Part shown: in pieces, positions 10,238 through 39,444 of the stretch
Numbering within the stretch: the stretch's first letter is position 1
How the letters are laid out: each line of letters begins with the position of its first letter
Source of the DNA: an uncultured Candidatus Saccharibacteria bacterium
GTDB lineage: Bacteria > Patescibacteriota > Minisyncoccia > UBA6257 > UBA11618
NCBI GenBank assembly: GCA_964373915.1
Contig: CAYJWP010000002.1
Coordinates: forward strand, 4,312-68,311
Length of the DNA: 64,000 bases
Direction: 5' to 3'
Notes under the pieces: model-generated
Databases searched by the model: none
What the model was told of the DNA's origin: nothing
The model's input: only the letters and a program-made list of their open reading frames with translations
Made by a program: the position numbers and the translations under genes

Positions 10238-10786
10238 ATGAAAAAGCAAAAGAAGACAGGATTTGTTCTAAACAAGCTAACCATCGCTGCTGCTGTGGGG
10301 ATTGCTTTAGTTCTTGTTATTGTTTGGGGGGTATTTTACTGGTTAAGCAGTAATGACTTTGCTTGGTTAGAAGGCGATGATATTGAAAGTGTTATTTCCA
10401 ATAATGTTGCCGATCACACGGATCCTTCTTATCAAGCCAAGAATCTTGTTGATGGCAATAGTCGTTCAAGAGCTAGTCCTTTTGAGTGTGGGCCTTTGGA
10501 CTATACTATTCAACTTAAGAATAAGTATAAAATAGATAAGGTTGAGTTAATATGGAGAGACCAGGGAACTACAGGAGTTAATGTTCAAGAATGGTCTTTA
10601 GAGGCGGAAACTGGCAATAATCAGTGGGAGTTGATTATAGAGAAAAAGGAGGCGCCAATGGAAGAAGTCACTACTGTGAATGCTAATGTAGAAGCAACAG
10701 CGATTCGTTTAAAAGCAGCTTCTCATAGCAATCAATGCATTTCCGTCTATGAGGTGAAACTTTTCGGAGCCTTAGCAGATAAATAA
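10238..10786 (+). CDS. Membrane-anchored (type II) discoidin / F5-8 type C domain protein
   Basis: N-terminal TM helix (LTIAAAVGIALVLVIVWGVFYW). KNLVDGN...VELIWRD...EWSLE...AIRLKA...SVYEVKLFG matches the F5/8 type C pattern. Paralog of the gene at 36806-37402. ATG at 10238 preferred over the TTG at 10214. Confidence 0.55.
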   Translation: MKKQKKTGFVLNKLTIAAAVGIALVLVIVWGVFYWLSSNDFAWLEGDDIESVISNNVADHTDPSYQAKNLVDGNSRSRASPFECGPLDYTIQLKNKYKIDKVELIWRDQGTTGVNVQEWSLEAETGNNQWELIIEKKEAPMEEVTTVNANVEATAIRLKAASHSNQCISVYEVKLFGALADK

Positions 10787-12903
10787 TCCCAGAATTTTTT
10801 GAGTATTTTTTCTAGAGGAAGAATTATTCCTATAGAGAAGATTATGAGGAATGGGACTAAAGGAGCTAGATATCGGACCTCTTGCTTGCCGAATATTAAA
10901 AGGGCTATTAGTTGGGCCCACACAAACCCCCCAACGATTAAATAGTCTTTTCTTTTACTTTCGGGAGAAAATATCTTGGGCTTGGTAATAAATAGAATTG
11001 AAGAAATTATGAACAAAATAAAAATAGGCCAAAGACTTACGCCATGAGCGCTAGTATCAATTAAGCCCATAAATTTTTCTTGAAGAAAATTTAAATATGA
11101 TATTGGTTCGTCAATTATCCAGCGAATGGTGTCATGTGAGCGACCGTCCAAAATTTTATTTGTCCATTTGAATATAGCAGAATAATCTGTAGCGGATGCT
11201 ATATAATCTTGAGGTATTGGTGTGTGATTTATGAAATTAATCGTTGGATTGCTATTAGACATTAGCTCAAATTGGCCTGAAATAATTTTGTTGCGTATAA
11301 CAAAAGGAGCTATTGTGGCTGTTACCCCAGCTAAAAACACAGCTAAGTACTTAATAAATGATTTACCAAAGCTTAAAACAAACCACAGGGAGATTAAAAA
11401 GAACCACAAGGCGAAGTTGGTTCTCATTAAGAGCATTAACCCCGAGATAATTCCTGATAGAGCGACGAGAGCTAACCACCCACCTCCCTTTTTTATTTTT
11501 TTTTCTGTGAACAAAAGCATGGCCGCGGTGGCAACGGCCAGCATCGTTCCCACTGGAAAAAATTCGGTAATTTGTTGAGTGGCGTGGGGATAAGTCGCTG
11601 ACAAGACAAAGACTGGTAGTAAGAGCCAGAAGTTTTTTATTTGCCCATCTTTTTTAAATAAGTAGAGACTGATAAAAAATGTTAGTAGAGCTGTAATCAA
11701 AACTGATACAAGTTGCAGAAAAGCAATCGGAAATAATGATTCACCGACAATATAGTGGGCAATGGCTAGTGAATGGTAGTAGAGAATTTGCCAGTAATAA
11801 GAGCTTTTTTGATAAGTTTTCATTAACCAGTCATTGGTTAATTGAAGATGGCGAGCGAATGTTTCATAAACTAACGGATCGTTGCCGCCATCAAGAATAT
11901 TAAAATATTCTGATCCCATCGCTTTGGAGAGAGTGGTAGCGGTTAGATAATAAAAGATGACAAAAAATAATATCATCAGATAAGGCTTATAAGAGTAAAA
12001 CCATGTTTTCCATGATGATTTTGCTGTGAAAATATAGAATGTGAAAAAAGTAAGGGCGGCAACCAAAATCTTTATTAATAGGTCAAGTATTCCTAAATAC
12101 CAGTCAAAAACTATTCTCTCTTTCCCATATCTTTGAGGAAAAAGAGAATTTTTAATAGTGGCTTTGCTGCCAAAATTTCCCTCCCAAGATAATCTTAATT
12201 TTTTATAGGGCCTCTCTAAGGCAGTGTAGTTAATTGTTATTGGAAAAACCTTATCTTTAAAATCTTCCCCGATAAGTTCCAGAGACGCTTTGTCCAAAGG
12301 CGTTTCACTGTCATATATTTTTATGTCCTTAATATATAAACTAGCTTTGTCTTTTGTTTCTAAACCAATTGTTGATTTATTAGGCGGTACATAAATATAA
12401 CCTTTCCATTCAACGTGGAATGGAAGGGAAGCCCTACTGCCATCAATAAAATTAAAACGTTCCTTATCATTAAAGAACCAAAGGGGAAATTGTTGAACAT
12501 TAAAAAAATACCCTACTGTTTCAAAATTAATTTCCCTATCTATCCTGGTGCCATCTATTTTAGAACGAATAAATTCTGTTGATTTTTCATAATTTTTACC
12601 ATCAGCGTTGGCATAATAATAGGAACCAACCAATCCTTGGGGAAGAGATAAAAATCCAAGGGCTGCTTTACCAGCGATGAGAACTATTAAGATAGCTGTC
12701 AAATTCCAGTAAATCGCCGATTTCTTTGGCGGCTTAATGGGTAGAAAAAATAAAACAGCGCCCAAAATTGTTAGCGACAAAAGTTCGTGAAGCTGGCTTA
12801 AAGGAAAACCATCAAACCAGCCCGGCCTGCCTGGGATTAAAATAAATAAAAATAAAAGAGTAATAATTAAAAACTTGAAAGCATTAGCTCTTTTTATTAC
12901 CAT
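10747..12903 (-). CDS. Polytopic membrane protein with an N-terminal extracytoplasmic PA14 domain; putative GT-C-fold (ArnT/PMT-like) lipid-linked-sugar transferase
   Basis: At least 12 predicted TM helices. A segment of about 180 aa (GLVGSYYYANADG ... HVEWKGYIYVPPNKSTIGLETKDKASLYIKD ... LRLSWEGN) fits the PA14 pattern. Divergent from an SMR-like gene. An ArnC-like GT2 is in the locus. Confidence 0.45.
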   Translation of the reverse strand: MVIKRANAFKFLIITLLFLFILIPGRPGWFDGFPLSQLHELLSLTILGAVLFFLPIKPPKKSAIYWNLTAILIVLIAGKAALGFLSLPQGLVGSYYYANADGKNYEKSTEFIRSKIDGTRIDREINFETVGYFFNVQQFPLWFFNDKERFNFIDGSRASLPFHVEWKGYIYVPPNKSTIGLETKDKASLYIKDIKIYDSETPLDKASLELIGEDFKDKVFPITINYTALERPYKKLRLSWEGNFGSKATIKNSLFPQRYGKERIVFDWYLGILDLLIKILVAALTFFTFYIFTAKSSWKTWFYSYKPYLMILFFVIFYYLTATTLSKAMGSEYFNILDGGNDPLVYETFARHLQLTNDWLMKTYQKSSYYWQILYYHSLAIAHYIVGESLFPIAFLQLVSVLITALLTFFISLYLFKKDGQIKNFWLLLPVFVLSATYPHATQQITEFFPVGTMLAVATAAMLLFTEKKIKKGGGWLALVALSGIISGLMLLMRTNFALWFFLISLWFVLSFGKSFIKYLAVFLAGVTATIAPFVIRNKIISGQFELMSNSNPTINFINHTPIPQDYIASATDYSAIFKWTNKILDGRSHDTIRWIIDEPISYLNFLQEKFMGLIDTSAHGVSLWPIFILFIISSILFITKPKIFSPESKRKDYLIVGGFVWAQLIALLIFGKQEVRYLAPLVPFLIIFSIGIILPLEKILKKFWDYLSAKAPKSFTS

Positions 12904-12906
12904 AAT

Positions 12907-13245
12907 TTGGTGAACGTCTTCTTTCTTTTTGTTGCTCTTGTTTTAAACTCGTTTGCCCATTTTTTCCTGAAAATTGGAGCCATTCAAGGGTTTTCTTTTT
13001 ATAACCTTCGCCTGTTTGCTGGTCTGGCTATTTTTGCTGTTAGCGCGGGTTTTTACTTTTTGTCGTTAAGAACCATACCCCTATCCACAGCTTTTCCTAT
13101 TATCGTTTTTGGCAGTTTTATACTGACGAACATCGTAGCATATTTTTATCTTAATGAAAATATAAATAATTGGCAGATTATTGGTTATTTAATGATTGTT
13201 TCGGGGCTTGTGTTGGTCTTTTATCATACGGATAAAATTTTTTGA
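12907..13245 (+). CDS. SMR/EamA-like 4-TM small membrane protein (ArnE/ArnF-like flippase subunit)
   Basis: About 110 aa, four hydrophobic helices. Typical size and position for ArnE/F next to a GT-C gene. Confidence 0.45.
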   Translation: MVNVFFLFVALVLNSFAHFFLKIGAIQGFSFYNLRLFAGLAIFAVSAGFYFLSLRTIPLSTAFPIIVFGSFILTNIVAYFYLNENINNWQIIGYLMIVSGLVLVFYHTDKIF

Positions 13246-14132: not shown

Positions 14133-15152
14133 ATGAACAATGGCAGAAGAACTGCATTTATAACAGGAGTAGCTGGTTTTCTAGGAAGTCACCTAGCTGA
14201 CAGATTACTTAAGGAGGGTTGGAAAGTTATAGGGTGTGACAATCTTATTGGAGGGTATCTTGATAATGTTTCGCCATTGGTAGAGTTTTATGTCCATGAT
14301 TGTGGTGACCGACAATTTATGGAAAAAATCATGGAAGGAGTTGATTTAGTATTTCACTGCGCCTGTACCGCTTATGAAGGTTTGAGCGTTTTCTCTCCTC
14401 ATTTTGTTACTAGAAACACTTACGATATTACAGTGTCTGTCTTGTCTGCTGCTGTTGCTAATAGAGTGAAAAGGTTTGTTTTCTGCTCTAGTATGGCTAG
14501 ATATGGAAAACAGGATAGATTGCCTTTTACTGAAGATATGAATCCCAAGCCACAGGACCCTTATGGGATAGCAAAACTGGCCGCTGAAAAAACTGTTGAA
14601 AATTTATGCAGAACTCATCGGATGGATTATGTAATAGCTGTTCCCCACAATATTATTGGTCCGCGGCAAAAATACGATGATCCTTATAGAAACGTCGCTT
14701 CTATAATGATAAATTTGATACTACAAAATAGACAGCCCGTGATTTATGGTGATGGCGAACAGAGGCGTTGTTTCTCTTTTATTGATGATGTTTCAGAGCC
14801 TATTTTTAAACTGGGAATTTTAGATAACGTTGTTGGCGAAGTAATTAACATTGGGCCGGATGAAGAAGAAGTCACAGTAAATGAACTGGCCAGGGTTATA
14901 GCCGAGGAACTTTCCTTTTCTTTGAGCCCCATTTATATGCCTGATCGCCCCAGCGAGGTTAAATTTGCTTCTTGTAGCGCTGATAAGGCGCGCAACTTTT
15001 TGGGGTATAAAACAACTGTTGATTTAAGAAGCGGCATAAAATCAATGATTGTGTACATAAAAGAAAGAAAGCCTAGACCATTTCTTTACCACATCAATCT
15101 GGAAATTATTTCTGATATTACTCCAAGGACTTGGAGGGATAAATTATTTTAA
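14133..15152 (+). CDS. NAD-dependent epimerase/dehydratase (extended SDR; UDP-glucuronate decarboxylase/UXS-like)
   Basis: FITGVAGFLGSHLADRLL Rossmann motif. YGIAKLAAE (YxxxK). CDNLIGG resembles the UXS/ArnA C-terminal domain. Confidence 0.75.
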   Translation: MNNGRRTAFITGVAGFLGSHLADRLLKEGWKVIGCDNLIGGYLDNVSPLVEFYVHDCGDRQFMEKIMEGVDLVFHCACTAYEGLSVFSPHFVTRNTYDITVSVLSAAVANRVKRFVFCSSMARYGKQDRLPFTEDMNPKPQDPYGIAKLAAEKTVENLCRTHRMDYVIAVPHNIIGPRQKYDDPYRNVASIMINLILQNRQPVIYGDGEQRRCFSFIDDVSEPIFKLGILDNVVGEVINIGPDEEEVTVNELARVIAEELSFSLSPIYMPDRPSEVKFASCSADKARNFLGYKTTVDLRSGIKSMIVYIKERKPRPFLYHINLEIISDITPRTWRDKLF

Positions 15153-15156
15153 GCCT

Positions 15157-15894
15157 ATGTATAAAGGGAAGTTGGTGTCTGTGGTTATGCCTGTTTATAA
15201 CGAGGTAGAGAACATAAGAAACGCCATTAAGTCTTTCCTTAATCAGCCTTTCGTAGATGAGGTTATTGCCGTGGATAATAATTCTTCTGATGGGAGCGAC
15301 AGTGAAATAAAAAAGACCAATGCAAATTATGTATTAGAAGAAAAACAAGGATACGGCGCAGCGCTTCAAAGGGGTATGAGAGAGGCCACCGGTGACCTAA
15401 TAGTGACTGTTGAGCCGGACGGTACATTTCTTGCAAACGATATTGAAAAACTGCTTATTTATTCTTTGGATTTTAGCGTTGTACTAGGAACAAGGACTTC
15501 TCGGGCGCTTATCTGGTCCAATGCTAATATGAGGTTTGTGTTAAGGATGGGTAATTGGGTAGTAGCCAAATTTTTGGAATATTTATTTAATGGCCCATCT
15601 CTTACTGATGTGGGTTGTACATACAAGCTTATTAACAGACAGGCTTATGAGAAAATAAAAAATAGTTTCACCGTTGATGGTTCTTGGTTTTCGCCAGAAT
15701 TTATGATTAGAATTCTTCAATATAATATTTCATGCGTTGAGGTGCCGGTCCATTATTGCCCAAGAAAAGGATATTCGAAAATAACGGGAGAGACTTATAA
15801 GGTGGCATTTCTTGGATTAAAGATGATTGTTTTTATTATTGGACAGCGTTTCAAATATTTTATGATGAATAAGAAAATAATTAACAAATTATGA
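15157..15894 (+). CDS. GT2 polyprenol-phosphate glycosyltransferase (ArnC/GtrB/DPM1-like)
   Basis: VVMPVYNE ... AVDNNSSDGS ... EPDGTF motifs. About 245 aa, typical of the family. Confidence 0.75.
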   Translation: MYKGKLVSVVMPVYNEVENIRNAIKSFLNQPFVDEVIAVDNNSSDGSDSEIKKTNANYVLEEKQGYGAALQRGMREATGDLIVTVEPDGTFLANDIEKLLIYSLDFSVVLGTRTSRALIWSNANMRFVLRMGNWVVAKFLEYLFNGPSLTDVGCTYKLINRQAYEKIKNSFTVDGSWFSPEFMIRILQYNISCVEVPVHYCPRKGYSKITGETYKVAFLGLKMIVFIIGQRFKYFMMNKKIINKL

Positions 15895-17054
15895 AAATTA
15901 TTCTGGTAAGCGTGGAAATTGAACCTAGATCTGGCTGGGGGACAACGACCCATAATTATGCTCTTTATTTTTTTAGACAAGGCATCCCTTTTACTTTATT
16001 GTTGCCAAAATCGGCTAAGAGAATGGTTTTCCCTTATATAAAAGACGTAAAATATGTTTTGCCTAATCTACCTCTTTCTTTTAGCAATGTTAGAGATTGG
16101 TGGAAGATATTTAAATTATGGCCGGGCGAAATGGATTCAATGAGCGATTCTTCTTTGATTCACTGTCTAGTGGATTTTCCTTATGCTGCTTGGTCTTATC
16201 ATCTTGCTAAGAAAATGAAATTGTCTTTGGTATTCGGCGCCCATGGCACTTATTCGGTGGCTCCGTTTGTCAGATTTCCCGATCGTTATCTGATGTTGCC
16301 TACTTATAGGGGAGCGGCGGCTGTTATGGCAGTTAGTAATTTTACAGCAAATAAAATGAGAGAGGTTTCTGGCTATGATCGTGATATAGATGTAGTTTAT
16401 AATCCGATCAGCCATCCAGTTGATTGTCCAGCCGAGGAGGAAGATTGGATTAATGAAAATTTTTCTCCGGAGGAAAAAGTTATTTTAAGCATTGGTCAGA
16501 TAAAAAAAAGAAAAGGCCTGGATATTTTAATTAAGGCAATGCCTAAAATTCTTGGCAAGATTCCAAACGCTAGGCTGGTAATTGGCTCAAGCATTGGTGA
16601 CGAGAGTATTTATAAGAATTTAGCTGAAGATTTGGGAATTAGTAAAAATATTTTAATAGTTAAGCCTTTAACTTCGGAAAAATTAGCAGGTTTATATTCA
16701 AGGTGTAATATTTTCGCTCTTACTTCCAGATATATAGATCATCAGTTTGAAGGATACGGCGTTGTTTATGGAGAGGCGGGTCTTTTAAAAAAACCAGTGG
16801 TAGCGGCTGATTCGGGCGGCGTAAGCGATGCCGTTCGTGACAATGAAACAGGTATTTTAGTGCCGGAAAATAATGTTGAAGCTACCGCCGAGGCAATTGT
16901 TAAGATTTTAAGCGATGACTCATTAGCTAGGAGATTAGGCGAGGGCGGGTTTAAATTTGCTAACGAGCGCAATTGGGATAATTATATGAAAAAAGTTTTA
17001 ACAATTTATGAAACAGTTTCGACAAATCATTCCAAGCTCTATAAGGTGGTTTAG
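15891..17054 (+). CDS. Glycosyltransferase family 4 (GT-B)
   Basis: YGVVYGEAGLLKKPVVAADSGGVSDAV motif. ATGA overlap with the upstream gene. Confidence 0.75.
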   Translation: MKIILVSVEIEPRSGWGTTTHNYALYFFRQGIPFTLLLPKSAKRMVFPYIKDVKYVLPNLPLSFSNVRDWWKIFKLWPGEMDSMSDSSLIHCLVDFPYAAWSYHLAKKMKLSLVFGAHGTYSVAPFVRFPDRYLMLPTYRGAAAVMAVSNFTANKMREVSGYDRDIDVVYNPISHPVDCPAEEEDWINENFSPEEKVILSIGQIKKRKGLDILIKAMPKILGKIPNARLVIGSSIGDESIYKNLAEDLGISKNILIVKPLTSEKLAGLYSRCNIFALTSRYIDHQFEGYGVVYGEAGLLKKPVVAADSGGVSDAVRDNETGILVPENNVEATAEAIVKILSDDSLARRLGEGGFKFANERNWDNYMKKVLTIYETVSTNHSKLYKVV

Positions 17055-18030
17055 TGTTTCCAGGATACCCAGAACACTAGCGAGCACCGTATTGTTATTT
17101 CTTGCTATAAAAAAAATTAATTTAAAAGCAGACAAAGTTGCTGTTGCTTTTTCTATTTCAGAAAAGCAGGCGCGTTTGTGGCTATATTTTTGTCAGAAAT
17201 TTTTACCAAATAATCAATGGGATTTTTTGATTGTTGATTGCGCCGGTGATATGAATCCGGAAAATTTTCAAGGGGCGCAAGTCGTTAGGTTTTTGAATTT
17301 TTCTCACGGCTTTAAAATAGATTTTTTTCTCCGGCGAATTTTAAAACACAAGCTAGTTTTTATTGGAGACGATGACAAATATCTTATTTCTGAAATTAAT
17401 CAATGCGTTGATCAGTTTAGTAAAGATGAGAAAGCCGCCGTGGTTTCTTTTTGTCCCAGAGTGTATTATCGTCTTCGTTTTGGCAATGAGGAGTTTTCGG
17501 CCATGGGCTCATATTCTTTAATAATTAAAAGGAGAATATTTTTGGATAACAAGTTATCTTTTAGGCCAGTTAATAAAATATCCACGAGAAGATTTTTCTA
17601 TAAAGAAAAACCGGGATATAAACGCAATCTAAAATTTGATACCGGAGACTTTGCCAATGAGCAATTAATAGCGATGGGATACAAAATTATTTTTGCGAAT
17701 GAAAATACAGTTGTAGGTTTTGACGGTTTGAGCCAGACGAGGATACTATTGTTGTTTTGCGGAAAGGAAAAAATTGCGGCAATGCTTGCCTCGGCTGATA
17801 AGTATCGGAGTGACGGAGCGGGAGCTAATTTAAGGCGAGCTTATGGGATTGCTAAAGTTGACTATCTTTTTAGTAATATTTTTCACGAAGAGCCAGAGTT
17901 AAATAAGGGCTTTAGTGAACAGGAATTAAGATTTCTAGTTAACAACAACAAACAGGTAGCGCAAGAAGAAAAATTAGAGGTTTTGAGTTATTTTGACCAT
18001 CTTGATAGGGTAAGCTCACATCTTTTATGA
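17008..18030 (+). CDS. Hypothetical protein (possible GT-A-like, DDD motif)
   Basis: ORF only, 340 aa. Overlaps the upstream gene by 47 nt. No firm motif apart from FIGDDDKY. Confidence 0.35.
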   Translation: MKQFRQIIPSSIRWFSVSRIPRTLASTVLLFLAIKKINLKADKVAVAFSISEKQARLWLYFCQKFLPNNQWDFLIVDCAGDMNPENFQGAQVVRFLNFSHGFKIDFFLRRILKHKLVFIGDDDKYLISEINQCVDQFSKDEKAAVVSFCPRVYYRLRFGNEEFSAMGSYSLIIKRRIFLDNKLSFRPVNKISTRRFFYKEKPGYKRNLKFDTGDFANEQLIAMGYKIIFANENTVVGFDGLSQTRILLLFCGKEKIAAMLASADKYRSDGAGANLRRAYGIAKVDYLFSNIFHEEPELNKGFSEQELRFLVNNNKQVAQEEKLEVLSYFDHLDRVSSHLL

Positions 18031-19379
18031 AAACTGTTTTTTTGATTTTGCCTCGGAGGCATTCTATACGTTATATGGCATCTTCTGGGGCTCTAAATTA
18101 TCTAGCGGATAACAAAGATATTAAATTAATTATCTTAACTTCCTTTAAGGATGATTTTTTTATAAAAGAATGGACTGGAAAAGGAGCAATTATTGAATTC
18201 ATTCCGCGCAGAGAGGGAACGGAAAGCATTATTGATTTACTTGTTTCTTCATCAATGAGGTATCTGCTAAGCATCCAGTATGATTTGGCTACTATTAATG
18301 CCAAGATTAGGATGAAAGGAAGGTTATACCATTTTTTATACCGTTTACTTGTTAATTTACTTTCACCATTAGCGCCATTTTTGCGAAGTGGTTTAAGGTG
18401 GCTTGATTTGAATTTAATCTCTGCTTTTTTGGATAAGCAATATAGGTTTTTATTAAAAAAACATAAGCCGGATTTAGTAGTAGTGCACTCTGTTTTTGAA
18501 GCAACTGCGTATCCAGTGAGCCGTGCCGCTTATCGCAGCTCAATTCCTTTGGTGGGTATAGTTATTAGCTGGGATAATTTAACTGGCAAGGGAGAGACTC
18601 ATGCGCATTTTAATAAATTAATCGTCTGGGGGCAGGCAATGAAACAGCAGGCGATTGCTTACCATGGTTATAGAGAAAATCAGATAGAAATGGTGGGCAC
18701 CCCCCAATTTGATTTTTTTGTAAGTCTTAGAGATAAGATTCCTTCTAGAGAGGATTTTTTGAAAAGTAAAAATTTGGATCCAGAAAGAAGATTAATTACT
18801 TATACCACTTTTTCCCAGAGGGTGGGTGGCAATGAAAAAGAATTTCATGTAATCAATCTAATTCACAACAGTATTATAAAAAATATTTTTTTAAAACCAT
18901 GTCAATTAATTGTGAGGGTTTACGAAAAGAGCATACAGGAGCTATATCAACCATTTGAAAGACTGCCTTTTGTGGCAGTGGATTATGCCCGGCGTTTACC
19001 ATCAGGTTTAAACTATAAAGAGGCGGATGAATATTTTATGCTTAATTTAGCGGCAACAGTAAAATATGCCGATGTGGTGGTCAATTTTTCTTCAACCACA
19101 AGCATTGATGCTTTTATTTTTGATATTCCTACTATCAGCTCTGCTTATAGCAAACGTAATTATTGGAATGAAACCCATCATTTTAGATATTTAGTCAAGA
19201 GTGGTGGCGTGATGGTGGCTCACACTGATGACCAGCTGATTAATTTTATTAATGAATACTTAGTTAATCCGGCTTCAGACACGGATAATAGAAAAAAAGC
19301 GCTTGAGGAGCAGTGTTTTAGAGTTGATGGCCGGGCAGGGGAAAGGATTGCCAATATTGTGTTAAATAGTTTAAAATGA
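18027..19379 (+). CDS. TagB/TagF-like polyol-phosphate transferase family protein (paralog of 24452-25822)
   Basis: VGTPQFDFF resembles the G.PR.D motif of CDP-glycerol glycerophosphotransferases. The N-terminus MKTVFLIL is shared with its paralog. Confidence 0.4.
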   Translation: MKTVFLILPRRHSIRYMASSGALNYLADNKDIKLIILTSFKDDFFIKEWTGKGAIIEFIPRREGTESIIDLLVSSSMRYLLSIQYDLATINAKIRMKGRLYHFLYRLLVNLLSPLAPFLRSGLRWLDLNLISAFLDKQYRFLLKKHKPDLVVVHSVFEATAYPVSRAAYRSSIPLVGIVISWDNLTGKGETHAHFNKLIVWGQAMKQQAIAYHGYRENQIEMVGTPQFDFFVSLRDKIPSREDFLKSKNLDPERRLITYTTFSQRVGGNEKEFHVINLIHNSIIKNIFLKPCQLIVRVYEKSIQELYQPFERLPFVAVDYARRLPSGLNYKEADEYFMLNLAATVKYADVVVNFSSTTSIDAFIFDIPTISSAYSKRNYWNETHHFRYLVKSGGVMVAHTDDQLINFINEYLVNPASDTDNRKKALEEQCFRVDGRAGERIANIVLNSLK

Positions 19380-20211: not shown

Positions 20212-21151
20212 CTATCATTATTTCAGTAAAAAAAAAGAGGATGGCTTTGGTATTTATCCCACGTCCATTTCTGATTTTAAGGCCCAGCTATTACAGTTGG
20301 GCCGCGATTTTTCTTTTATTAGCCAGAATGAATTGATTGAAGCAATTGATGGGGTAAGTGATTTGCCGGAGAAATCTTGTTTGATAACTTTTGATGACGG
20401 TTTGAGGTCGCAGTATGAGCAGGCGTTGCCGGTGATAGACGTTTTAGGAATCCCGGCAGTTTTTTTTGTTAATACTTTGCCATATATTAATGGCAAGCTT
20501 TTATCGGTGCATAAAATTCATTGGTGCCGCCACTTTCTTTCTCCCAAAAAATTTATTACTGAAGTTTGTGATGCTTATAATTTTTTTACGGGCCAAGAAT
20601 TTAACCAACATCTTTTTTCTTTAAGCGATGATGACTTACTTAAACAATATCGATATGACGATCTTGATTCGGCAAGGATAAAGTTTGCGTTGAATAATGC
20701 CCTTGAAGAAGATCTGCGCAATCAGATAATAAATGTTATTTTTAAAAAAATTATCAATAACGAGCGGTCTTTTTGCCGAGATTTTTATATTAACCGGAGA
20801 GATTTAAAAAAATTGTATAAAAGAGGTTATCTTGGGACTCACACTCACAGCCATCAGCCTCTGGCATCTTTTGGAGCCGATCGGACCACAAAAGAGATTG
20901 TTCATTCTCTTGACTCACTGGCTGACATTCTAACTATTAGTAGGCAAGTTTTAGAAATAAGAGGGATTTCTTATCCTTACGGCAATTCCCAATCGGTTTC
21001 TCCGGAAACCGGAGCTATTGCTAAGAGTTTGGGTTTGAAGTTTGGTTTTACCATGGAAAGAAGTTTAAATAGTACCTTACAAGAACCGTTATTATTAGCA
21101 CGGGTTGATACTAATGATGTGATTGGCGGGAAAAAGGAATTGTTACTTTAA
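20144..21151 (+). CDS. Polysaccharide deacetylase (NodB homology) family, ArnD-like deformylase candidate
   Basis: LAVNYHYF and TFDDGLRSQ NodB motifs. Start may be the GTG at 20189. Lies directly downstream of the formyltransferase. Confidence 0.6.
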   Translation: MPIRTVVYKNILLLNKVKFLAVNYHYFSKKKEDGFGIYPTSISDFKAQLLQLGRDFSFISQNELIEAIDGVSDLPEKSCLITFDDGLRSQYEQALPVIDVLGIPAVFFVNTLPYINGKLLSVHKIHWCRHFLSPKKFITEVCDAYNFFTGQEFNQHLFSLSDDDLLKQYRYDDLDSARIKFALNNALEEDLRNQIINVIFKKIINNERSFCRDFYINRRDLKKLYKRGYLGTHTHSHQPLASFGADRTTKEIVHSLDSLADILTISRQVLEIRGISYPYGNSQSVSPETGAIAKSLGLKFGFTMERSLNSTLQEPLLLARVDTNDVIGGKKELLL

Positions 21152-24442: not shown

Positions 24443-24451
24443 ATATTTTTT

Positions 24452-25822: not shown

Positions 25823-26521
25823 TTTCTTAAATTTTATCTCCGCTTCTTGCCAATCTTCTTCAGTGTTAATGTCAATTTCATAAAGGGGATTAGTTTCGTA
25901 AAGTTCAACTTTACTGCCATAAAGCCGTGGCGGGTTTTCATAAAGATTTTGGGGCTTAAGAACATAAACAAGATCGTTGCGAGCATAGCATTTTTGCGGG
26001 AAGTCTTGTCGGCGATTGAGAATGTTTTCTAACGGCACCCCGCCGAAGAGGCAGACACCGCCGTCATTGCTTTTAGTTAAAGTCCAGTAAGGAGTATGGT
26101 TGGCTGGGGTTTCATTGACAGAAACTACCGAGTCGCATTGTTTGGTCTGGAAAATATTAATCGCTTCATTTATATGAAAAGTCTGTCGGAGGGGATTAGT
26201 GGCAAACAATAGGGCAAGCGCGTCAACGGAGTAGCCGTCTTTCAAAAGCCACTGATAAGCATGTTGGAGTACCGGTTCTATGCCGATGGTATCGGTTGCT
26301 AATTCATTAGGTCTGATGAAAGGCACATCAGCGCCATATTTTTTGGCGACCTCCACTATTTCTTGGCTATCGGTGGAAACTATCAATCTATCCATAGGCG
26401 CGCTTTTGAGGGCTGTTTCTATCGTCCAGCCTATTAATGGTTTACCGCAGAAATGCTTAAGATTTTTATTGATTATTTTTTTTGACCCTCCTCTTGCTGG
26501 AATAATTCCCATAATCTTCAT
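25802..26521 (-). CDS. Acylneuraminate cytidylyltransferase family (second CMP-nonulosonate/Kdo-type synthetase)
   Basis: MGIIPARGGSKKIINKNL N-terminal motif. About 240 aa. Confidence 0.7.
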   Translation of the reverse strand: MKIMGIIPARGGSKKIINKNLKHFCGKPLIGWTIETALKSAPMDRLIVSTDSQEIVEVAKKYGADVPFIRPNELATDTIGIEPVLQHAYQWLLKDGYSVDALALLFATNPLRQTFHINEAINIFQTKQCDSVVSVNETPANHTPYWTLTKSNDGGVCLFGGVPLENILNRRQDFPQKCYARNDLVYVLKPQNLYENPPRLYGSKVELYETNPLYEIDINTEEDWQEAEIKFKKLNKLAQ

Positions 26522-32276: not shown

Positions 32277-33201
32277 GGATTATTGTACTCTATGCTGTAG
32301 TAAAGATAACAGATTTTATATGGGTGATTCCAGAATAAAGCAATGCTTAGCCTGCGGTGTTGTTTTTCTTGATTCTAACCAGGAAATAAAAAAACTTGAT
32401 GAATATTACTCATCTTTCGATGTCTGGAAGAATCGTTTGGCTGATGATGAGGAGATTAGATTGGCAGCTAAAGATTCAAAACAGAGATTGGGGTTAATTT
32501 TTAAGTATTTAAACAGGCCGGTGGGAGAATTACGGCTTCTTGATGTCGGTGCTCGTGAGGGTTTTTTTGTCAGCGAAGCTAATAAATTTGGCTTTAACGC
32601 AATTGGAATTGATCCAAACAAACAAGAAGTGGCTAGAGCTCAAAAAAGAGGTATTCATTTAATAGAAGGCGCTGTTGAAGAGTCTCACTTTGAAGGCGAA
32701 AAGTTTGATTTGATAACCATATTTCACGTTCTTGAGCATTTAAAAAATCCTAGAGATGTTTTGGTAAAACTAAAAGATAATTTGAACTCTGATGGATTGC
32801 TGGTGATTGAGGTGCCTAATATTAAAAGTTATCTAGCTCAGAAGCATGGCCTTTCGTGGAAATTTATTTCTTTAGAACACCTTTTTTATTTTTCTCCGGA
32901 AACTCTCACTAGTTTGTTAGTCGAATCCGGTTTTGAAATTTTGATGATAAAAAAGAGAAATTTTTCAATAAGGAATTTAAGTATTAATAAAATTTTCCAG
33001 TATTTTTTTCCGACGTCACAAAACATTGACCGTTTTAAAATGAAATCAAAAAAAAATAATGTTCAAAAAACACCGCTCACAATTTTATTGGCTCACAATG
33101 TTTTGAAAGCTTTGAAAATTAAAAATCTTCTGGCCTTTTTCATTAATTATTTGGGAAGGGGCGACCACGTGCTATTTATCGTCCGTCGCCGTCAGTCGTA
33201 G
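32275..33201 (+). CDS. Class I SAM-dependent methyltransferase with N-terminal Zn-ribbon
   Basis: CTLCCS...CLACG Cys4. [15 protein letters not shown] motif I. VLEHL motif. Confidence 0.7.
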
Positions 33202-34449
33202 TTTTTTCCTGCTTTCTATTTCCCAAATTGAAATATTAAATATTACTCCAAAAATTTTAGAGATAACCATTGCTAGCACCATTCCTTTTAGCCCTCCAAT
33301 AATACCAAGGACGATAATGGTAATAATTTTTATGACGCTGGGTATTGTACTAGTGAGATAACCGGCATAGATCATCTTCTGTGATAAGAAGGCATTAGCT
33401 ACTAAAGCGACGGAAAAAGAAAGAGCAATTTCTATAGCAAGAATCTGGGAGTAGAAGGCGACATTATAATAAAGAGGGAAAATTATCTTAAACACTAAAG
33501 GGGCGATAATTGCATATAATCCGCCGACAATTATACCCATAATCAAAGATTTAACGAACAAACAGTAAAAAATAGAGCGTACTTCTTTTATGCTCTTTTC
33601 GGAAAATTTGGGGAGAATAATCTCGTTGCTTATGAGTTTGATATTTTTTGAAATCTGTCCTGGCAAAGTCTTGATAATCGCATATTGGGCCAAAGTTTGA
33701 GCTCCCCAGAAATTAAACATTATTAAATTATCAGTATAAGTAGCGATTTGGCCCAATATTTTCATAAAAGTGAGGTGTTTGCCGTACTCAATGCATTTTT
33801 TGCCCCCAATATCATTGGGTTTGTATTTTATTAATGTTTTTCTGAATAAAACAAGGTTTATAATAATGTCGGAAATATTGAATGTTAATAAGGTAATTAG
33901 TAAATTGTTGCTAATAAATAAAGCTATGATAGTAGCTCCACTGGTAAATGCGGTGGCTGTTAAATTATAGGCCGTTAATGTCTTGAAATCTTTTTTACCT
34001 TTTAGATATGAACCATAAGATTGAAATATAAAGAAGATGGGGTGAAAAATGGCAAAAATAAATAAGGAAGACGCTACCAAATAGTCATTTCTTACCAGAT
34101 AGTAGTAACTGGCAATTACTAATATTGTTATGGTGAATATAAATCCCCAGCGAAGCCGGAAATAGGCGACGCTTTTTAGGGCTCCTTCTTCGCCTTGGGC
34201 GACAGATCTGACAATGGATAAATTAATGCGATTAAAAAGTAAAAATTGAAAAGCACCCACAATAGAAAAAGCGTATCGGTATATGCCTAATTCTTGGGGA
34301 TCAAGCAGATTGGCTAGAGCTAAAGCTAAGCCTAGTGATATTAAGTTTACAGAAAATTTATCAATGATAATCCAAGAGACGCTGTTTATTAGATAGCGGG
34401 TGCCTGCCGGCCAACTAAATTTAGATGATATTATTTTATGAATCTTCAC
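33172..34449 (-). CDS. Polysaccharide flippase, Wzx/PST family (MOP superfamily)
   Basis: 425 aa, about 12 TM helices. Sits in the glycan locus. Confidence 0.6.
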   Translation of the reverse strand: MKIHKIISSKFSWPAGTRYLINSVSWIIIDKFSVNLISLGLALALANLLDPQELGIYRYAFSIVGAFQFLLFNRINLSIVRSVAQGEEGALKSVAYFRLRWGFIFTITILVIASYYYLVRNDYLVASSLFIFAIFHPIFFIFQSYGSYLKGKKDFKTLTAYNLTATAFTSGATIIALFISNNLLITLLTFNISDIIINLVLFRKTLIKYKPNDIGGKKCIEYGKHLTFMKILGQIATYTDNLIMFNFWGAQTLAQYAIIKTLPGQISKNIKLISNEIILPKFSEKSIKEVRSIFYCLFVKSLIMGIIVGGLYAIIAPLVFKIIFPLYYNVAFYSQILAIEIALSFSVALVANAFLSQKMIYAGYLTSTIPSVIKIITIIVLGIIGGLKGMVLAMVISKIFGVIFNISIWEIESRKKLRLTATDDK

Positions 34450-34903
34450 CTTTACTGAAAGAATCTTTAAATATTAAGATAAATAAGATTGCTAACAAGC
34501 CGTAAGCAAGGAGATTTCCCAGACCTGATTGGGCCACAGTTAAAGCTATTGATTTTACTATTGTATGATTTGATAAATACCAAGCGAAAATTGATAACAT
34601 GGCTATCGTTGCCAAGGATTTTTTGTTTAAATTCAAAAAAACTTTTTGTGAAGTCTTCCGCGCTTCATAATTTATAAGTTCTGGAGCTTTATGAATTATT
34701 GATAGTAAGCTCTCTGCTTCAGGATAGACTTTAAGAGCCAAACTAACTATTAAAAATTGAAGCAAGAGCTTACTATCAATACCAGCTTCTGTGAATGTCC
34801 CCCCGGTTAAAAAGTTCAATATAATGATTGAAAAAATAACAGTAACGTAATACCAAAAACTTTCCGAGTTTATTTTTACTATATATTGAAAAACAGATTC
34901 CAT
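34436..34903 (-). CDS. Small integral membrane protein, unknown function
   Basis: 155 aa, 4 hydrophobic helices. In the operon between the Wzx gene and the 638-aa membrane protein gene. Confidence 0.4.
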   Translation of the reverse strand: MESVFQYIVKINSESFWYYVTVIFSIIILNFLTGGTFTEAGIDSKLLLQFLIVSLALKVYPEAESLLSIIHKAPELINYEARKTSQKVFLNLNKKSLATIAMLSIFAWYLSNHTIVKSIALTVAQSGLGNLLAYGLLAILFILIFKDSFSKGEDS

Positions 34904-34905: not shown

Positions 34906-36822
34906 TTAATCAGTATAAAAGGAAAAATGTTCAGCATCCTGCCATTTTTTGAATTTTTTTAATATATTAATCTCGGCTTTAGTTTTATCTTTATTCTTTT
35001 CTATTATCAATAGGTGAACATCGGTTTCTTCTAAGTATTTTCTTTGGCCATCGGTAGCATTAGCTATCAAGCAGTAACGGTAATTATAGCATTCCTCAGG
35101 AAGGAAAACTTTCCTGGGTTCAAAAATCCATCCAAGGTAAACAGCGTCTATATTACCCAAAAAGAGAATATCTCTATCGTTTTTTTTGCTAGCTAATAAT
35201 AACTCCTTTATTTTTTCTTTCTTAATAATATCCACCTCTGCTGTTTTATTTATCATTTCGGTAAAAACGTAGGATTGCTGTTCTAATACTTTGATAAATA
35301 AGTTTGGCACAAGAAAAATAATTGTAAGAAAAATTACAATTTGTCCCATTCTAATAGATAATTTTTCTTTGACTTGTTTTATAAGAACAGAGAGGGGGAG
35401 GAGGCAGAAAACAGCGATGGCGGGATAGAGAAAAATAAAATAGCGAAATTGTTGCCAGCTGGCATAAATGGCGTGATAAGTGACCCAAGGCGTTTTCAAA
35501 TAAATAAATATTAAGGTGAAGCTGATTATTAAAGATAAGAGGGCCGCAGAAATTCTCTTGCTTATTATTACAGTAATCAAAGCTATTAAAAATCCTAAAA
35601 TAGAAAACCAGATAACGCTTATTCCATAAGAGTTAACATAGGGTTGGTCCCAAAGCCCTAGAGGCCGAAGGTAATCATTAAGATAGGCAATGCTACGAAT
35701 ATCTCTGTTGGGTAATAGTTTAAAGAAGTAAAGTAAATAACGGATGATGGCAATAATTGCTAGTGGAAAGGCAATGGCTGTTATTGAGTTCAATATTTTT
35801 TTTATATTTAAAAAAAATTTTTCATACAGCAAACTAGTATCAGCCCAATATTTTTTAATGTAAAGTATTATTATTTCTATAATACTTGCTACACCAATGG
35901 CGATTAAAAAAATAACTAAACTAGCAAAATGAATGTAATAAAAAAGAGCGATAAAGGAAATAATTATCGGCCAGATAATCAAATTTTCTTTAAACCATGT
36001 CCTGTGGTAGTGGATTAATAAAAAACCAAAAATGTAAAGAAAAATTCCTACATTTTGTGGGACTACGGCGGCGGACAGTTGATAATAATTACTCCAGTAG
36101 AAGGAAAAGACAATTAGGGGCGTTAAAATGGCTAATTGCGGTACTGGCAAAATAATGCGTCCAAGTTGGAAAATGGCTAAGGCCTGAAGGATATAAAAAA
36201 AACAACTTATAATCAGGATAAATTTTTGATAGTCATTAAAATTGTCTGCTATGAATGGTATGTAGGAGGCGATTAACAACGCAAATCCCTCTTTGTTGGA
36301 AATGCGCCAAGGCTGAAAAATAGACCTGTTTGTTTCAAGGGGATTATGAAGAAGGCTTTTGGTATAGCCAAACCAAAAATATTGATCAGTTGCCTGATTA
36401 AAATAAGGAACCTCTAGCGAGGAGACTTGATAAGCTACGGTGATAATTAGAATAATAGCAACTAATATCATTGCTCCATCTGAGGCCGAGATTTGTAAAT
36501 TAGTAAAGTTGTTATCGATGAGTTTACGGCTTCTAATTCTTAAAAAAATAATGCTTAGTATTATGAAAAATTCTGCAATAATAATGGTGTATAACTGCAG
36601 ATTATTGGGATAAAAGTAGTTTAGGAGGATAACTCCTAAAGAAATTATTACCTGGGAAGCAAAGCCAAAGAAAGTTGTGAAGAGAAGAAAAGGGATTAGA
36701 TTAAGCTTGTTTTTGTGGATAGCAATTAATGCTAGAATGACACCCGGTAGCAAAAAAGTGATAAAAAATGGAGGGAAAAAGCTAAATATTATAAACTGGA
36801 GCATCTTATAGTGGTCTGCCAA
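34906..36822 (-). CDS. Large polytopic membrane protein (candidate Wzy_C-family polymerase/ligase/O-oligosaccharyltransferase or GT-C); paralog of 37636-39444
   Basis: 638 aa, at least 12 TM helices plus a C-terminal soluble domain of about 130 aa. N-terminal FFPPFFITFLLPG is shared with its paralog. Confidence 0.45.
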   Translation of the reverse strand: MADHYKMLQFIIFSFFPPFFITFLLPGVILALIAIHKNKLNLIPFLLFTTFFGFASQVIISLGVILLNYFYPNNLQLYTIIIAEFFIILSIIFLRIRSRKLIDNNFTNLQISASDGAMILVAIILIITVAYQVSSLEVPYFNQATDQYFWFGYTKSLLHNPLETNRSIFQPWRISNKEGFALLIASYIPFIADNFNDYQKFILIISCFFYILQALAIFQLGRIILPVPQLAILTPLIVFSFYWSNYYQLSAAVVPQNVGIFLYIFGFLLIHYHRTWFKENLIIWPIIISFIALFYYIHFASLVIFLIAIGVASIIEIIILYIKKYWADTSLLYEKFFLNIKKILNSITAIAFPLAIIAIIRYLLYFFKLLPNRDIRSIAYLNDYLRPLGLWDQPYVNSYGISVIWFSILGFLIALITVIISKRISAALLSLIISFTLIFIYLKTPWVTYHAIYASWQQFRYFIFLYPAIAVFCLLPLSVLIKQVKEKLSIRMGQIVIFLTIIFLVPNLFIKVLEQQSYVFTEMINKTAEVDIIKKEKIKELLLASKKNDRDILFLGNIDAVYLGWIFEPRKVFLPEECYNYRYCLIANATDGQRKYLEETDVHLLIIEKNKDKTKAEINILKKFKKWQDAEHFSFYTD

Positions 36823-37402
36823 CTATCTCTATCTCATTAACGCCAATCCAATTTTCTTTTTCTGAAGACGCCTTAATTCTTAACATTGCGGCTGTGAAAA
36901 GTTGGTCTTTAATTGATGTTTCGGAAACACCGGGCACTGTTCCCGTTGCTATTTCTGTCCATTCTTCATCGTCTAAGGATGATTCAAGGCTCCACTTGCT
37001 GATATATTTGGGATCTGTACCTTGCACTCCCCAGAATATTTTGATTGATTTTATCTCATAAACATCAGGCAATTTTACAATGTAATCAATTTCTTTATTG
37101 GCTGGGGCTGCCTGAGTTTTTTTATTACCGTCAACCAATTTGTCGGCTCCTTTGCCGATTTTCAGACTATACTCTGGTGATTCATCAACGTTGCTGACAG
37201 CGGTCATGTCTTGAGCGATAATTTTACTATAACCGCTAAAACTACTGCTTTCTCCCGATCGTGGATTTCCGCAAGCGATAGCTTTAATTGAATCTGGACC
37301 AATTAGAGAGAAACACCATCGCACCCCTATGAAAGTGATTAAGACTGATAAAATAACTGAAGTTTTGATTATTTTTTTTCTGTCTTTTTCGGACAATTCC
37401 AT
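36806..37402 (-). CDS. Membrane-anchored discoidin / F5-8 type C domain protein (paralog of 10238-10786)
   Basis: N-terminal TM helix. KLVDGN ... IKIFWGVQGTD ... KWSLE ... MLRIKAS ... VNEIEIVG pattern. Confidence 0.55.
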   Translation of the reverse strand: MELSEKDRKKIIKTSVILSVLITFIGVRWCFSLIGPDSIKAIACGNPRSGESSSFSGYSKIIAQDMTAVSNVDESPEYSLKIGKGADKLVDGNKKTQAAPANKEIDYIVKLPDVYEIKSIKIFWGVQGTDPKYISKWSLESSLDDEEWTEIATGTVPGVSETSIKDQLFTAAMLRIKASSEKENWIGVNEIEIVGRPL

Positions 37403-37457
37403 TGTTTCGTGGAGTATATTATATTGATAGTTCTTTTACAAGGAAATTTGTCATTAA

Positions 37458-37649
37458 TCATTCATTAGTAATAGTAATTAAAAAGGAAAGATATAAAACA
37501 ATAAAGAGACTGACTGTGAGTCGATAGTTATAGCCCATAGCTTGAAAAATATCAATGATAATTTTTGTTGACTTTTGTTCAAATAAAGACCAGCTTAAGG
37601 CAATGACTAAAGCCCAAATTATTACTTTGAAATTTTTATTTGGCGGCAT
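37458..37649 (-). CDS. Small single-pass membrane protein (hypothetical)
   Basis: 63 aa with one hydrophobic helix. Sits in-operon between the two large membrane protein genes. Confidence 0.3.
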   Translation of the reverse strand: MPPNKNFKVIIWALVIALSWSLFEQKSTKIIIDIFQAMGYNYRLTVSLFIVLYLSFLITITNE

Positions 37650-39444
37650 AGAAAATAAAATTAGGGGTTTCTCTTTGTTTTGAAAAATAATCCACTATTC
37701 CGCGCAAATTCTCCATCTTAGTATTTTTACCTGTTACAAGAAGGTCAATATTTAAGTTATGAAAATAGTCTGCTTTATCAGAAATCCGATTGCTAACCAG
37801 GCAATTGTAATAATCAAAGCAATCTTTATTGATGGTAAAAATTTGCTGAGGAGCGAAAGCGGCCTGAAGGTAGGGCAGGGGAATCCCCTCAACAATCATT
37901 AAAGTATTCTCCTTGCTATTTTTAATTATTTTCTGTTTTTCAAGCATTAATTCATTGAGGATTTGTCGGTAAGTTATTGATTTAGCGGCAGTATTAGAGT
38001 CTTTATACAAATCCGAGAATAAGGATTCGTGTTGTTTCATAATATAAACAAGGAGGGTGGGTAGTGTTATCGTTATTAAGAAACAAACCATTACTTTCCC
38101 AACAGTTTTAGAAATAAATTTTTCTATTATTTTAACCAAAAAAGCAAAAGGTAATAAAGATAAAATGGATAAACTTGGATAGAGGAATAGAAAATATCTG
38201 AATTTCTGCCAAGTAGCTTTAATAGCATGATATGGTATTAGCGGCGCCAAGAGAAGGAGATAAAATAAAATAAAAATTATTCCTAACATAAATGCCGGTA
38301 GTCTTTTTTTTGATATTATGCCGTGAGTTAAAACTATAATAAAACCGATGACCGCTAGCCAAATTATTATTTCTGAATAAGAATTAATGTAAGGTTGGCT
38401 GAAAAGGTTGTGGGGTCTTATATATTCTTCGTAACCATCTATTGTACTAGGAGGGAAATAGGAGATTAATCCAAGGGCAAAAAGAAAGTATCGGACAAGA
38501 AAAATAATCGTAGGCGGAATAGTTAAAGCAGACACAATTTTAAAATTATTAGTTTTAACACCAACCTCCGTTAATCCGATAAGACTTATCATTCCGATAG
38601 CAATAATAAACATCACAAAGGAGCCAATGTTGGTTAAGTAAAACATAAAAAGAAACGGCACAACGAACTTCCAAGAATTTTTTATTAGTAGCAAGCCGGC
38701 AATAAATAAAAAAATTCCCAAATTTTGAGGAACAATTACGGCATAGAGCAGATAGTAATTTATCCAGTAAAAAATAAAGATAATTGGTGGTGCTAAAAGG
38801 GCTAATGACGGTATGGGTAATATTGATCGTGCTAATTGGAAAACAGCTAGAGCGATTAATAAATATTGGAAATAACTCCATGTAGCAATAAAAAATTGGT
38901 AAGAATCGATATCTTCGTTAATAAAAGCCAGGTATGGGGAGATGATAAAGATGAATCCCGGACTTTGGGCGCTTAATAATTTTAAAAACTGTGGACTTAT
39001 TTCTTGAGGTTGACCGATGAAAGATTTAGCAAGCGCTACCCAATAATATTGGTCGGTAGACTGGTTGAAATAAGTATATCCCGTTCCTATGATTTGAATC
39101 GAAATTAAAGCTATGAGTACGATTGTGAATATAATAAATGCAAAATCATGAAATGATGGACGGATTATTTTCCAACGCAAATCTATTTTTATTAAAACTG
39201 CTAATAAGAAAACAACAGAAATAAAAATTATTATAGAACGAAAGTCAAATCTAGTTATCGTATTGATGAAGACGCTTATGGGAGTGGCTATAACTTGAAA
39301 GAAAAAGCCAAAAATTGCAATGTAAAGTAGTAATTTGACTAGATTAACTTCTTTTTTAAGAAAAATAAGACTAAGGAATAATCCCGGCAGTAAAAAAGTA
39401 ATAAAAAAAGGCGGAAAAAAAGACTCTACTAGAAAATCAGCCAT
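37636..39444 (-). CDS. Large polytopic membrane protein (candidate Wzy_C-family polymerase/ligase/O-OTase or GT-C); paralog of 34906-36822
   Basis: 602 aa, at least 12 TM helices, C-terminal soluble domain. Shares the FFPPFFITFLLPG N-terminus. Confidence 0.45.
   Translation of the reverse strand: MADFLVESFFPPFFITFLLPGLFLSLIFLKKEVNLVKLLLYIAIFGFFFQVIATPISVFINTITRFDFRSIIIFISVVFLLAVLIKIDLRWKIIRPSFHDFAFIIFTIVLIALISIQIIGTGYTYFNQSTDQYYWVALAKSFIGQPQEISPQFLKLLSAQSPGFIFIISPYLAFINEDIDSYQFFIATWSYFQYLLIALAVFQLARSILPIPSLALLAPPIIFIFYWINYYLLYAVIVPQNLGIFLFIAGLLLIKNSWKFVVPFLFMFYLTNIGSFVMFIIAIGMISLIGLTEVGVKTNNFKIVSALTIPPTIIFLVRYFLFALGLISYFPPSTIDGYEEYIRPHNLFSQPYINSYSEIIIWLAVIGFIIVLTHGIISKKRLPAFMLGIIFILFYLLLLAPLIPYHAIKATWQKFRYFLFLYPSLSILSLLPFAFLVKIIEKFISKTVGKVMVCFLITITLPTLLVYIMKQHESLFSDLYKDSNTAAKSITYRQILNELMLEKQKIIKNSKENTLMIVEGIPLPYLQAAFAPQQIFTINKDCFDYYNCLVSNRISDKADYFHNLNIDLLVTGKNTKMENLRGIVDYFSKQRETPNFIFYAAK

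Follow-up and report, generated by a model that had tools for sequence, protein, structure and literature searches.

Putative cell-surface glycopolymer locus of a Saccharibacteria bacterium in which GT-C enzymes are encoded next to membrane-anchored discoidin proteins

We analysed a stretch of 64,000 nucleotides (nt), in the following called the window, from an uncultured Candidatus Saccharibacteria bacterium (contig CAYJWP010000002.1 of assembly GCA_964373915.1, positions 4,312 to 68,311). The low-GC part of the window is most likely a cell-surface glycopolymer locus with two units of GT-C enzymes and anchored discoidin proteins. Unit A contains the enzyme M718 and the discoidin protein D1, unit B the enzymes M638 and M602 and the discoidin protein D2 (the enzymes are named after their length in residues). 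All five open reading frames (ORFs) had been called in the initial annotation and were found in place. The central observation is a strictly conserved partnership between M638-type GT-C enzymes and a small anchored protein of the lectin type. It is carried by the domain identities, the GT-C fold of M638, the rarity of its family, the strict adjacency of the genes and the co-divergence of the paired proteins. M638 and M602 form a new, previously undescribed GT-C family, restricted to the candidate phyla radiation (CPR), which has a fold like that of oligosaccharyltransferases (OSTs) without the OST motifs. The locus thus defines a GT-C family that is invisible to sequence searches of Pfam, NCBIfam and the PDB.

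The M638/M602 family and its discoidin partner

Unit B covers 33.2-39.4 kb of the minus strand, where the genes for M602, D2, M638, the small membrane protein S155 and a flippase of the MOP/Wzx type follow each other in this order, and it is an operon. M602 (37636..39444, minus strand) is the first cassette gene, and M638 is encoded at 34906..36822 on the same strand. The two proteins align end to end with 34% identity (E = 2e-108), which confirms the earlier statement that they are paralogs. We counted 14 hydrophobic segments in M638 and 13 in M602; the helices of the AlphaFold model of M638 agree with its ~14 transmembrane segments and are followed by a C-terminal alpha/beta domain of ~90 residues. 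HMM and profile searches with M638 and M602 gave no match in Pfam, NCBIfam or the PDB sequences. The family is small: a word-indexed search of 5.8 billion proteins yielded 4 members and an exhaustive profile search of 1.84 billion representatives yielded 25. Matches to genomes came from metagenome-assembled genomes of Patescibacteria in 8/8 cases, mostly labelled Saccharibacteria, plus Parcubacteria and Harrisonbacteria.

The AlphaFold model of M638 was built from 18 family members and reached a pLDDT of 89.4 and a pTM of 0.91. In the Foldseek search with this model the first eight ranks were OST chains with a probability of 1.00. The best fold matches were OST and PMT enzymes, and the model superposes on solved GT-C enzymes. 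Because the model is confident and the Foldseek matches are OSTs we regard M638 and M602, as modelled, as GT-C-fold enzymes that are closest to STT3/PglB/AglB and that are neither transporters nor proteins of the Wzy/WaaL type. Membership in the OSTs themselves was rejected: the motif WW[DE]/WWDYG occurs in 0/18 family members and there is no conserved DxD column. The M638-family profile did not find any OST among the PDB sequences. The initial annotation had described the large membrane proteins as 'GT-C/Wzy_C-like'. The GT-C fold and the assignment to glycan-transfer enzymes rather than transporters stood, but the Wzy_C reading was rejected as none of the proteins matched Pfam Wzy_C.

The residues D146, Q147, Y148, W150, F180, N245, Y246, Q256, F459 and R460 are invariant in the M638 family and all of them are present in M602. 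D146 is part of the motif YFNxATDQYxW, is invariant in 18 sequences and lies in a 60-residue loop after helix 4, which is predicted to be outside the membrane because of the positive-inside rule. N245, Y246, Q256 and R460 would fall at the predicted outer helix ends, and the invariant R460 together with the near-invariant H298 are candidate phosphate ligands. The C-terminal alpha/beta domain of the model holds a conserved Cys, which is consistent with an extracytoplasmic location. A distant family member of 801 residues (P0030) carries a beta-rich C-terminal extension (residues ~640-801) with a weak match to CBM_11 (E = 0.015). We did not count this extension as fusion ('Rosetta stone') proof; should the match hold up, the M638 enzyme family would have a member with a fused carbohydrate-binding module (CBM).

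Discoidin domains in D1 and D2 and the paralogy of the two proteins had both been claimed from the letters of the DNA, and both claims were borne out. D1 (10238..10786, plus strand), the partner of the PA14-bearing enzyme M718, matched Pfam F5_F8_type_C (PF00754) with E = 3.3e-11 and 43.8 bits. D2 (36806..37402, minus strand; 198 residues), which is encoded immediately upstream of M638, matched with E = 3.7e-10 and 40.5 bits. Both are above the gathering cut-off of 28.2 bits, and the two proteins share 30% identity over the domain (E = 3e-16). D1 is 190 residues long from TTG 10214 and 182 residues long from ATG 10238. For PF22633, a sialidase-associated NedA-like galactose-binding domain, we observed 31.9 bits for D1, above the cut-off of 27.8, and 26.9 bits for D2, just below it. 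Since their K/R-rich N-termini, each followed by one hydrophobic helix, obey the positive-inside rule, D1 and D2 are predicted to be type II single-pass proteins with the discoidin domain facing outward. The ectodomain comprises only ~150 residues in total, with a short stalk. In alignment A4 the transmembrane helix carries a near-invariant Ser and is followed by a conserved Cys pair (juxtamembrane C30 and C44 in D2), which might hint at a packed helix and an oxidised outer stalk. Like the Cys of M638, this pair agrees with an extracytoplasmic domain. A word-index homolog search with D2 returned the query itself only.

For the comparison across genomes, loci were gathered in three ways: by exact-protein look-up, by a scan of the GTDB species genomes and, starting from the discoidin protein, by a scan of metagenomes. 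The narrower alignments A1 and A5 were used for the locus scans. After removal of duplicates there were 15 distinct M638-family loci with upstream DNA, made up of 12 full-length pairs (including the window) and the partial loci L006, L017 and L022. In 15/15 of them we found a D2-type gene directly upstream and on the same strand, so the suggested co-occurrence in related genomes was upheld for this family. The D2-type genes encode 192-207 residues, and their distance to the M638-type gene ranges from a gap of 12 nt to an overlap of 46 nt if the longest-ORF starts are used. The paired enzymes have diverged to 27-36% identity and their D proteins to 38-43%, and the pairwise distances of the two sets correlate with r = 0.98. 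This co-divergence shows that the pair is inherited as a unit; it does not prove contact.

In the window itself, D2 and M638 had been reported to overlap by 17 nt. That overlap rests on a TTG start. The TAA of D2 (36808-36806) is followed by one base and then by ATG 36804, which is the start used by all homologs. The true start of M638 is therefore probably ATG 36804 and the gap 1 nt, a spacing still tight enough for co-translation. It had also been stated that each of the three large enzymes is paired or fused with a lectin-like module of its own. This overstates the layout: of the two discoidin genes D1 belongs to M718, which has a PA14 insert besides, and D2 is a single gene that lies between M602 and M638 and serves both. 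A D gene flanked on either side by a GT-C gene is the usual arrangement. The slot upstream of D is taken in most other loci by a polytopic family of 533-555 residues (A6), in the window by M602. One of seven A6 members matched PMT_2 (E = 4e-7), and hhalign aligned A6 with the M638 family at 78% probability (E = 1.8e-5), with DGYIY on TDQYFW, which identifies A6 at the level of sequence profiles as another GT-C.

M718, its PA14 insert and the neighbouring D1 gene

M718 (10747..12903, minus strand) is a putative PMT_2-type GT-C protein with ~13 transmembrane segments and the conserved motif GNDPLxYETFARH (D342, E347, R351) in an extracytoplasmic loop. PF13231 (PMT_2) matched 5/7 members of the M718 family with a best E of 6.8e-10; M718 itself had no PMT_2 match at E <= 0.1. 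Judged by its family, M718 is a glycan-transfer GT-C enzyme and not a transporter. With BLASTP we found no similarity between M718 and M638 or M602. A kinship of M718 and M638 was left unproven: hhalign gave E = 0.016 and a probability of 2.8%, though the YFN..D..Y loop motifs align.

The PA14 domain that had been proposed for M718 was recovered with the profile of the family, but the single sequence stayed below the threshold. For M718 alone Pfam PA14 gave E = 0.15 and 12.3 bits with a cut-off of 24, and the best family member reached E = 0.005. The M718-family profile matched solved PA14 domains in the PDB with E values from 1.5e-7 to about 1e-5, among them 6qdi (1.5e-7) and the PA14 domain of anthrax protective antigen (~5e-6), at profile positions 167-262. 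The model of M718 shows beta strands at the insert, but is poor overall (pLDDT 56). The insert, a putative PA14 beta-sandwich, is encoded at 12124..12645 (minus strand; ~residues 87-260), lies between the hydrophobic helices 3 and 4 and precedes the conserved GNDPLxYETFARH loop. Based on the positive-inside rule it is predicted to be extracytoplasmic.

The genes for D1 and M718 are convergent and their 3' ends overlap by 40 nt (10747-10786). We observed a D1-type gene that is convergent and overlapping with the M718-type gene in 4/7 M718-family contexts, namely the window, L007, L010 and L030. The latter three hold the closest relatives of M718 with 40-43% identity, and the pairing of M718 and D1 is clade-limited. 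According to the called genes the overlap is 74 nt in L007 (3817-3890) and 74 nt in L010 (4920-4993); in L030 it is 59 nt (2017-2075). The tail-to-tail overlap is thus conserved in all four contexts. The subtype of D follows the type of enzyme: D1-type genes accompany M718-type genes and D2-type genes accompany M638-type genes.

Possible role of the anchored discoidin proteins

On the outer side of the membrane, GT-C enzymes transfer a sugar that they take from a polyprenyl-phosphate-linked donor. With moderate confidence we propose that D1 and D2 would act in trans on the GT-C enzymes, as subunits that bind the acceptor glycan, because the fused beta-sandwich CBMs of the GT-C enzymes EmbC, AftD and GT136 ORF12 bind acceptor polysaccharide, as described in PMC11127046. 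Membrane topology is inferred, as are contact between D and GT-C, lectin activity of D and the nature of donor and acceptor. The N-terminal helix of D would dock against its GT-C within the membrane; the discoidin domain would keep the surface glycan, still growing or already complete, close to the active-site loop, with the invariant residues D146 and R460 in M638 and with D342, E347 and R351 in M718.

Unit A spans 10.2-15.9 kb (D1, M718, an SMR-type protein and a GT2). Its gene content resembles that of the classical Gtr/Arn-type systems, in which three components carry out side-chain glycosylation. The GT2 glycosyltransferase (15157..15894, plus strand; Pfam Glycos_transf_2 E = 1.4e-24) is a candidate polyprenyl-phosphate-sugar synthase that would supply the GT-C donor; its best NCBIfam matches include AglJ, dolichyl-phosphate hexose transferase, PpgS and ArnC, and each of these stays far under the curated cut-off. 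The SMR-type protein (12907..13245, plus strand, divergent from M718) has four transmembrane segments and 112 residues. It is a candidate ArnE/ArnF-like flippase for the polyprenyl-phosphate-sugar donor, with NCBIfam matches to EbrA/SMR (6e-7), ArnF (1e-6) and ArnE (7e-4), all far below the curated cut-offs, and weak Pfam matches to EamA and Multi_Drug_Res. In such a system the GT2 would make the polyprenyl-phosphate sugar, the SMR/ArnEF-like protein would flip it and the PMT_2-type GT-C M718 would use it, with PA14 in the outer loop and D1 as a neighbour. In L007 and L010, too, the M718 ortholog has a GT2 and an epimerase gene that diverge from it.

Several points weigh against the role of D1 and D2 as subunits. 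Adjacency and co-divergence would also arise from simple operon co-inheritance, and the binding of sugars by the discoidin domains is assumed here from the behaviour of the family. There is no D gene beside the more distant M718 relatives in L008/L009, L029 and L031. Divergent D-like proteins with a transmembrane helix and a discoidin domain (38-39% identity over the domain) are encoded without an adjacent GT-C in L025/L026 (1978-2724) and in L027 (12-596) and L028 (2124-2708), which shows that the discoidin protein can exist without such a neighbour. M718 alone fails both the PMT_2 (E <= 0.1) and the PA14 threshold, and its model has the low pLDDT given above. Furthermore the fused CBM of GT136 ORF12 was dispensable for activity under the conditions tested (PMC11127046), and hence the lectin subunit may be only accessory. 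One of the GT-C-free D-like genes adjoins a UDP-sugar dehydrogenase, a 195-residue membrane protein and the apparent start of a Wzx gene. The distant M718 relatives in L008 (7098-10151) and L029 (4978-7876) adjoin a UbiA-family prenyltransferase, L008 also a phosphatase.

The alternative that survives best concerns the enzymes rather than the D proteins. In a pathway that depends on Wzx, does without Wzy and is specific to CPR, M638 and M602 could take the vacant place of the polymerase, of the en bloc ligase, or of both. Wzx would flip an undecaprenyl-diphosphate-linked repeat unit, which the OST-like GT-C would polymerise or transfer whole to a glycan or surface protein, and D2, as an obligate lectin subunit, would choose the acceptor or determine the chain length. 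The last minus-strand gene of the cassette is indeed a MOP/Wzx-type flippase (33172..34449, minus strand; Pfam Polysacc_synt_3 E = 2.3e-13, Polysacc_synt E = 5.8e-13), and homologs of it follow the cassette in at least eight other loci (L001, L002, L004, L012, L013, L015, L016 and L018). The polytopic proteins in the window part of the island are M718, the 112-residue SMR-type protein, the Wzx-type flippase, S155, M638 and M602. This complete list contains no candidate for Wzy, WaaL or an ABC permease, and neither do L001, L002 and L004. The nearest folds of M638 are OSTs, but the OST hallmarks are missing (WWDYG in 0/18 members, no conserved DxD). Moreover, three-component systems are described in which a MOP-family flippase handles a polyprenyl-phosphate monosaccharide donor (PMC11127046), and the island runs beyond the left edge of the window, where a Wzy could lie. 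We therefore consider this polymerase or ligase role doubtful, and a machine in which M638 and its obligate discoidin protein polymerise or ligate Wzx-flipped diphosphate-linked glycan units en bloc, with the lectin measuring or selecting the acceptor chain, is likewise a tentative idea. If true, it would be a third route to surface-polymer assembly besides the Wzy/Wzz and ABC-transporter pathways.

Somewhat less probable still is an independent role of the D proteins as surface lectins or anchors, which would ride in glycan operons and take no part in the GT-C reaction; they might hold the completed polymer at the membrane or, in episymbiosis, attach to glycans of the host cell. Discoidin domains are widespread as adhesion and lectin modules, D1 is convergent to M718 and not co-transcribed with it, and the solitary D-like genes of L025-L028 fit such a role. 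We would then, however, not expect the 15/15 adjacency to M638-family genes with almost no intergenic DNA across a set of enzymes that have diverged to ~30% identity, nor the tracking of the GT-C type by the D subtypes. In addition the short stalk leaves the ~150-residue ectodomain close to the membrane instead of letting it reach outward. It is quite improbable that M638 and M602, as functional counterparts of OST or PMT, glycosylate a protein of the cell surface, for example the adjacent one of 2306 residues; D2 would then be comparable to an accessory subunit of OST or to one of the malectin type. In favour of this reading the best fold matches are OST and PMT enzymes and the giant gene lies directly upstream of the cassette on the same strand, but a strong terminator-like hairpin and a GC step part the two, the gene tables of L001, L002, L004 and L005 list no giant gene beside the cassette, and the OST sequence motifs are missing.

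If D is a true subunit, as we propose, substrate recognition by a GT-C can be outsourced to a separate, exchangeable protein, which would make acceptor specificity easier to predict and would be of use in glycoengineering. In metagenomes, the pair of D and M638-type genes can serve as a compact marker of such loci. A large part of bacterial diversity belongs to the Patescibacteria, and to our knowledge their envelope and surface-glycan chemistry are almost undescribed. The cultivated ones all live attached to host cells, according to bioRxiv 10.1101/2024.11.25.624915.

The surrounding island and comparison with known systems

The low-GC block reaches from position 1 of the window to ~39,500 with 32-41% G+C in the GC profile, and from 40 kb onward the values are 44-51%. 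The step from ~35% to ~50% at ~39.5 kb coincides with a terminator-like hairpin (39462..39496, minus strand), which has a 14-bp stem and a T run, is a consensus match only and sits between the 2306-residue surface-protein gene and M602. As a compositionally distinct block the glycan island, which extends past the left edge of the window, may have been acquired. Pfam and NCBIfam scans of its genes yielded six GT4 glycosyltransferases, one GT2, several S-adenosylmethionine (SAM) methyltransferases, GHMP and FGGY sugar kinases, nucleotidyltransferases, a formyltransferase, a deacetylase and two TagF-like glycerophosphotransferases. The island also encodes a nonulosonic-acid set (14133-15152 and 21151-26521) with NeuB, a NeuC-like UDP-GlcNAc 2-epimerase, a LegB-like dehydratase and two CMP-transferases. 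At least two other loci (L004 9062-10036 and L002 8679-10784) have a NeuB or CTP_transf_3 gene close to the cassette. Given these genes and the PF22633 match, the D lectin might recognise such sugars. Two soluble island proteins are encoded on the plus strand at 17008-18030 (340 residues; no match at all) and at 18027-19379 (450 residues; weak GT-B matches, and a BFO_1060-family glycosyltransferase match with E = 1e-25 that is below the cut-off).

Directly downstream of M638 lies S155 (34436..34903, minus strand), a small membrane protein of 155 residues with no Pfam or NCBIfam match. Its homologs directly downstream of M638-family genes are either free-standing (164 residues) or form the N-terminal part of fusions of 404-477 residues with a C-terminal SAM methyltransferase (L004 3990-5423, L014 7738-8951, L015 7776-9047 and L016 7829-9112). 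From these fusions we suspect that glycans are methylated in a membrane-tethered step that is tied to the cassette. Between M602 and D2 a hydrophobic ORF of 63 residues from the ORF listing (37458..37649, minus strand) fills the gap of 230 nt and overlaps the M602 stop by 14 nt. No significant relative of it was found; the best phmmer matches were S155-like proteins with E = 0.07. The ORF may, with some uncertainty, be the relic of an S155-like gene and thus of a duplicated unit of GT-C and S155. A promoter scan gave no sites above the level of shuffled sequence. Just outside the island the 2306-residue protein (39513-46433, minus strand) contains Big_5, SdrD_B, CarboxypepD_reg and fn3 domains and is probably a surface adhesin. 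Further along, 50185-57223 (minus strand) holds six consecutive ORFs of 196-329 residues without a Pfam match at E <= 0.001, a run that is interrupted by an annotated FAD oxidase gene (53496-55145).

The pairing of discoidin and GT-C genes was not described in the literature searched, so the initial annotation was right to call the system unfamiliar, but GT-C enzymes combined with a carbohydrate-binding beta-sandwich are as such already known in cis. The mycobacterial EmbA/B/C and AftD and the GT136 ORF12 of Citrobacter carry the CBM in the same protein (PMC3044687; PMC11127046). Here, in contrast, the discoidin domain is placed on a separate single-pass membrane protein with its own gene, the M638 family shows no HMM-detectable sequence relationship to these enzymes, and M718 combines an inserted PA14 with a separate discoidin neighbour. 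The fold of M638 is closest to the catalytic OST subunits STT3/PglB/AglB (GT66). Unlike these, M638 has neither WWDYG nor a conserved DxD nor a match at the sequence level; its C-terminal domain has only ~90 residues, and there are ~14 hydrophobic segments with about four helices before the loop with the invariant Asp.

The M718 family matches PF13231 and can be compared with PMT1/2/4 (GT39) and ArnT (GT83), which both belong to Pfam PMT_2. The MIR domain of PMTs sits in loop 5. The insert of M718 differs in being a PA14 domain and not a beta-trefoil MIR, and in being placed between helices 3 and 4, before the catalytic loop. What the M718 family shares with the PMTs is a beta-rich lectin-type domain that is predicted to lie in an extracytoplasmic loop, as the luminal MIR of PMTs does (PMC7759382).

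The set of genes around M718 resembles GtrA/B/C, ArnC/ArnEF/ArnT and the pentofuranose systems of Kelly et al. 2024, which combine a GT2- or UbiA-type polyprenyl-phosphate-sugar synthase, a small or MOP flippase and a GT-C. The UbiA-adjoining M718 relatives in L008 and L029 resemble the polyprenyl-phosphoribose three-component systems of the same paper. In our locus the synthase and flippase assignments are below the curated thresholds, and D is a fourth, conserved, membrane-anchored lectin component. Compared with all of these systems, the new elements are an unannotated, CPR-restricted GT-C family, its strictly conserved and separately encoded single-pass discoidin partner, and an M718 that combines a PA14 insert with such a partner.

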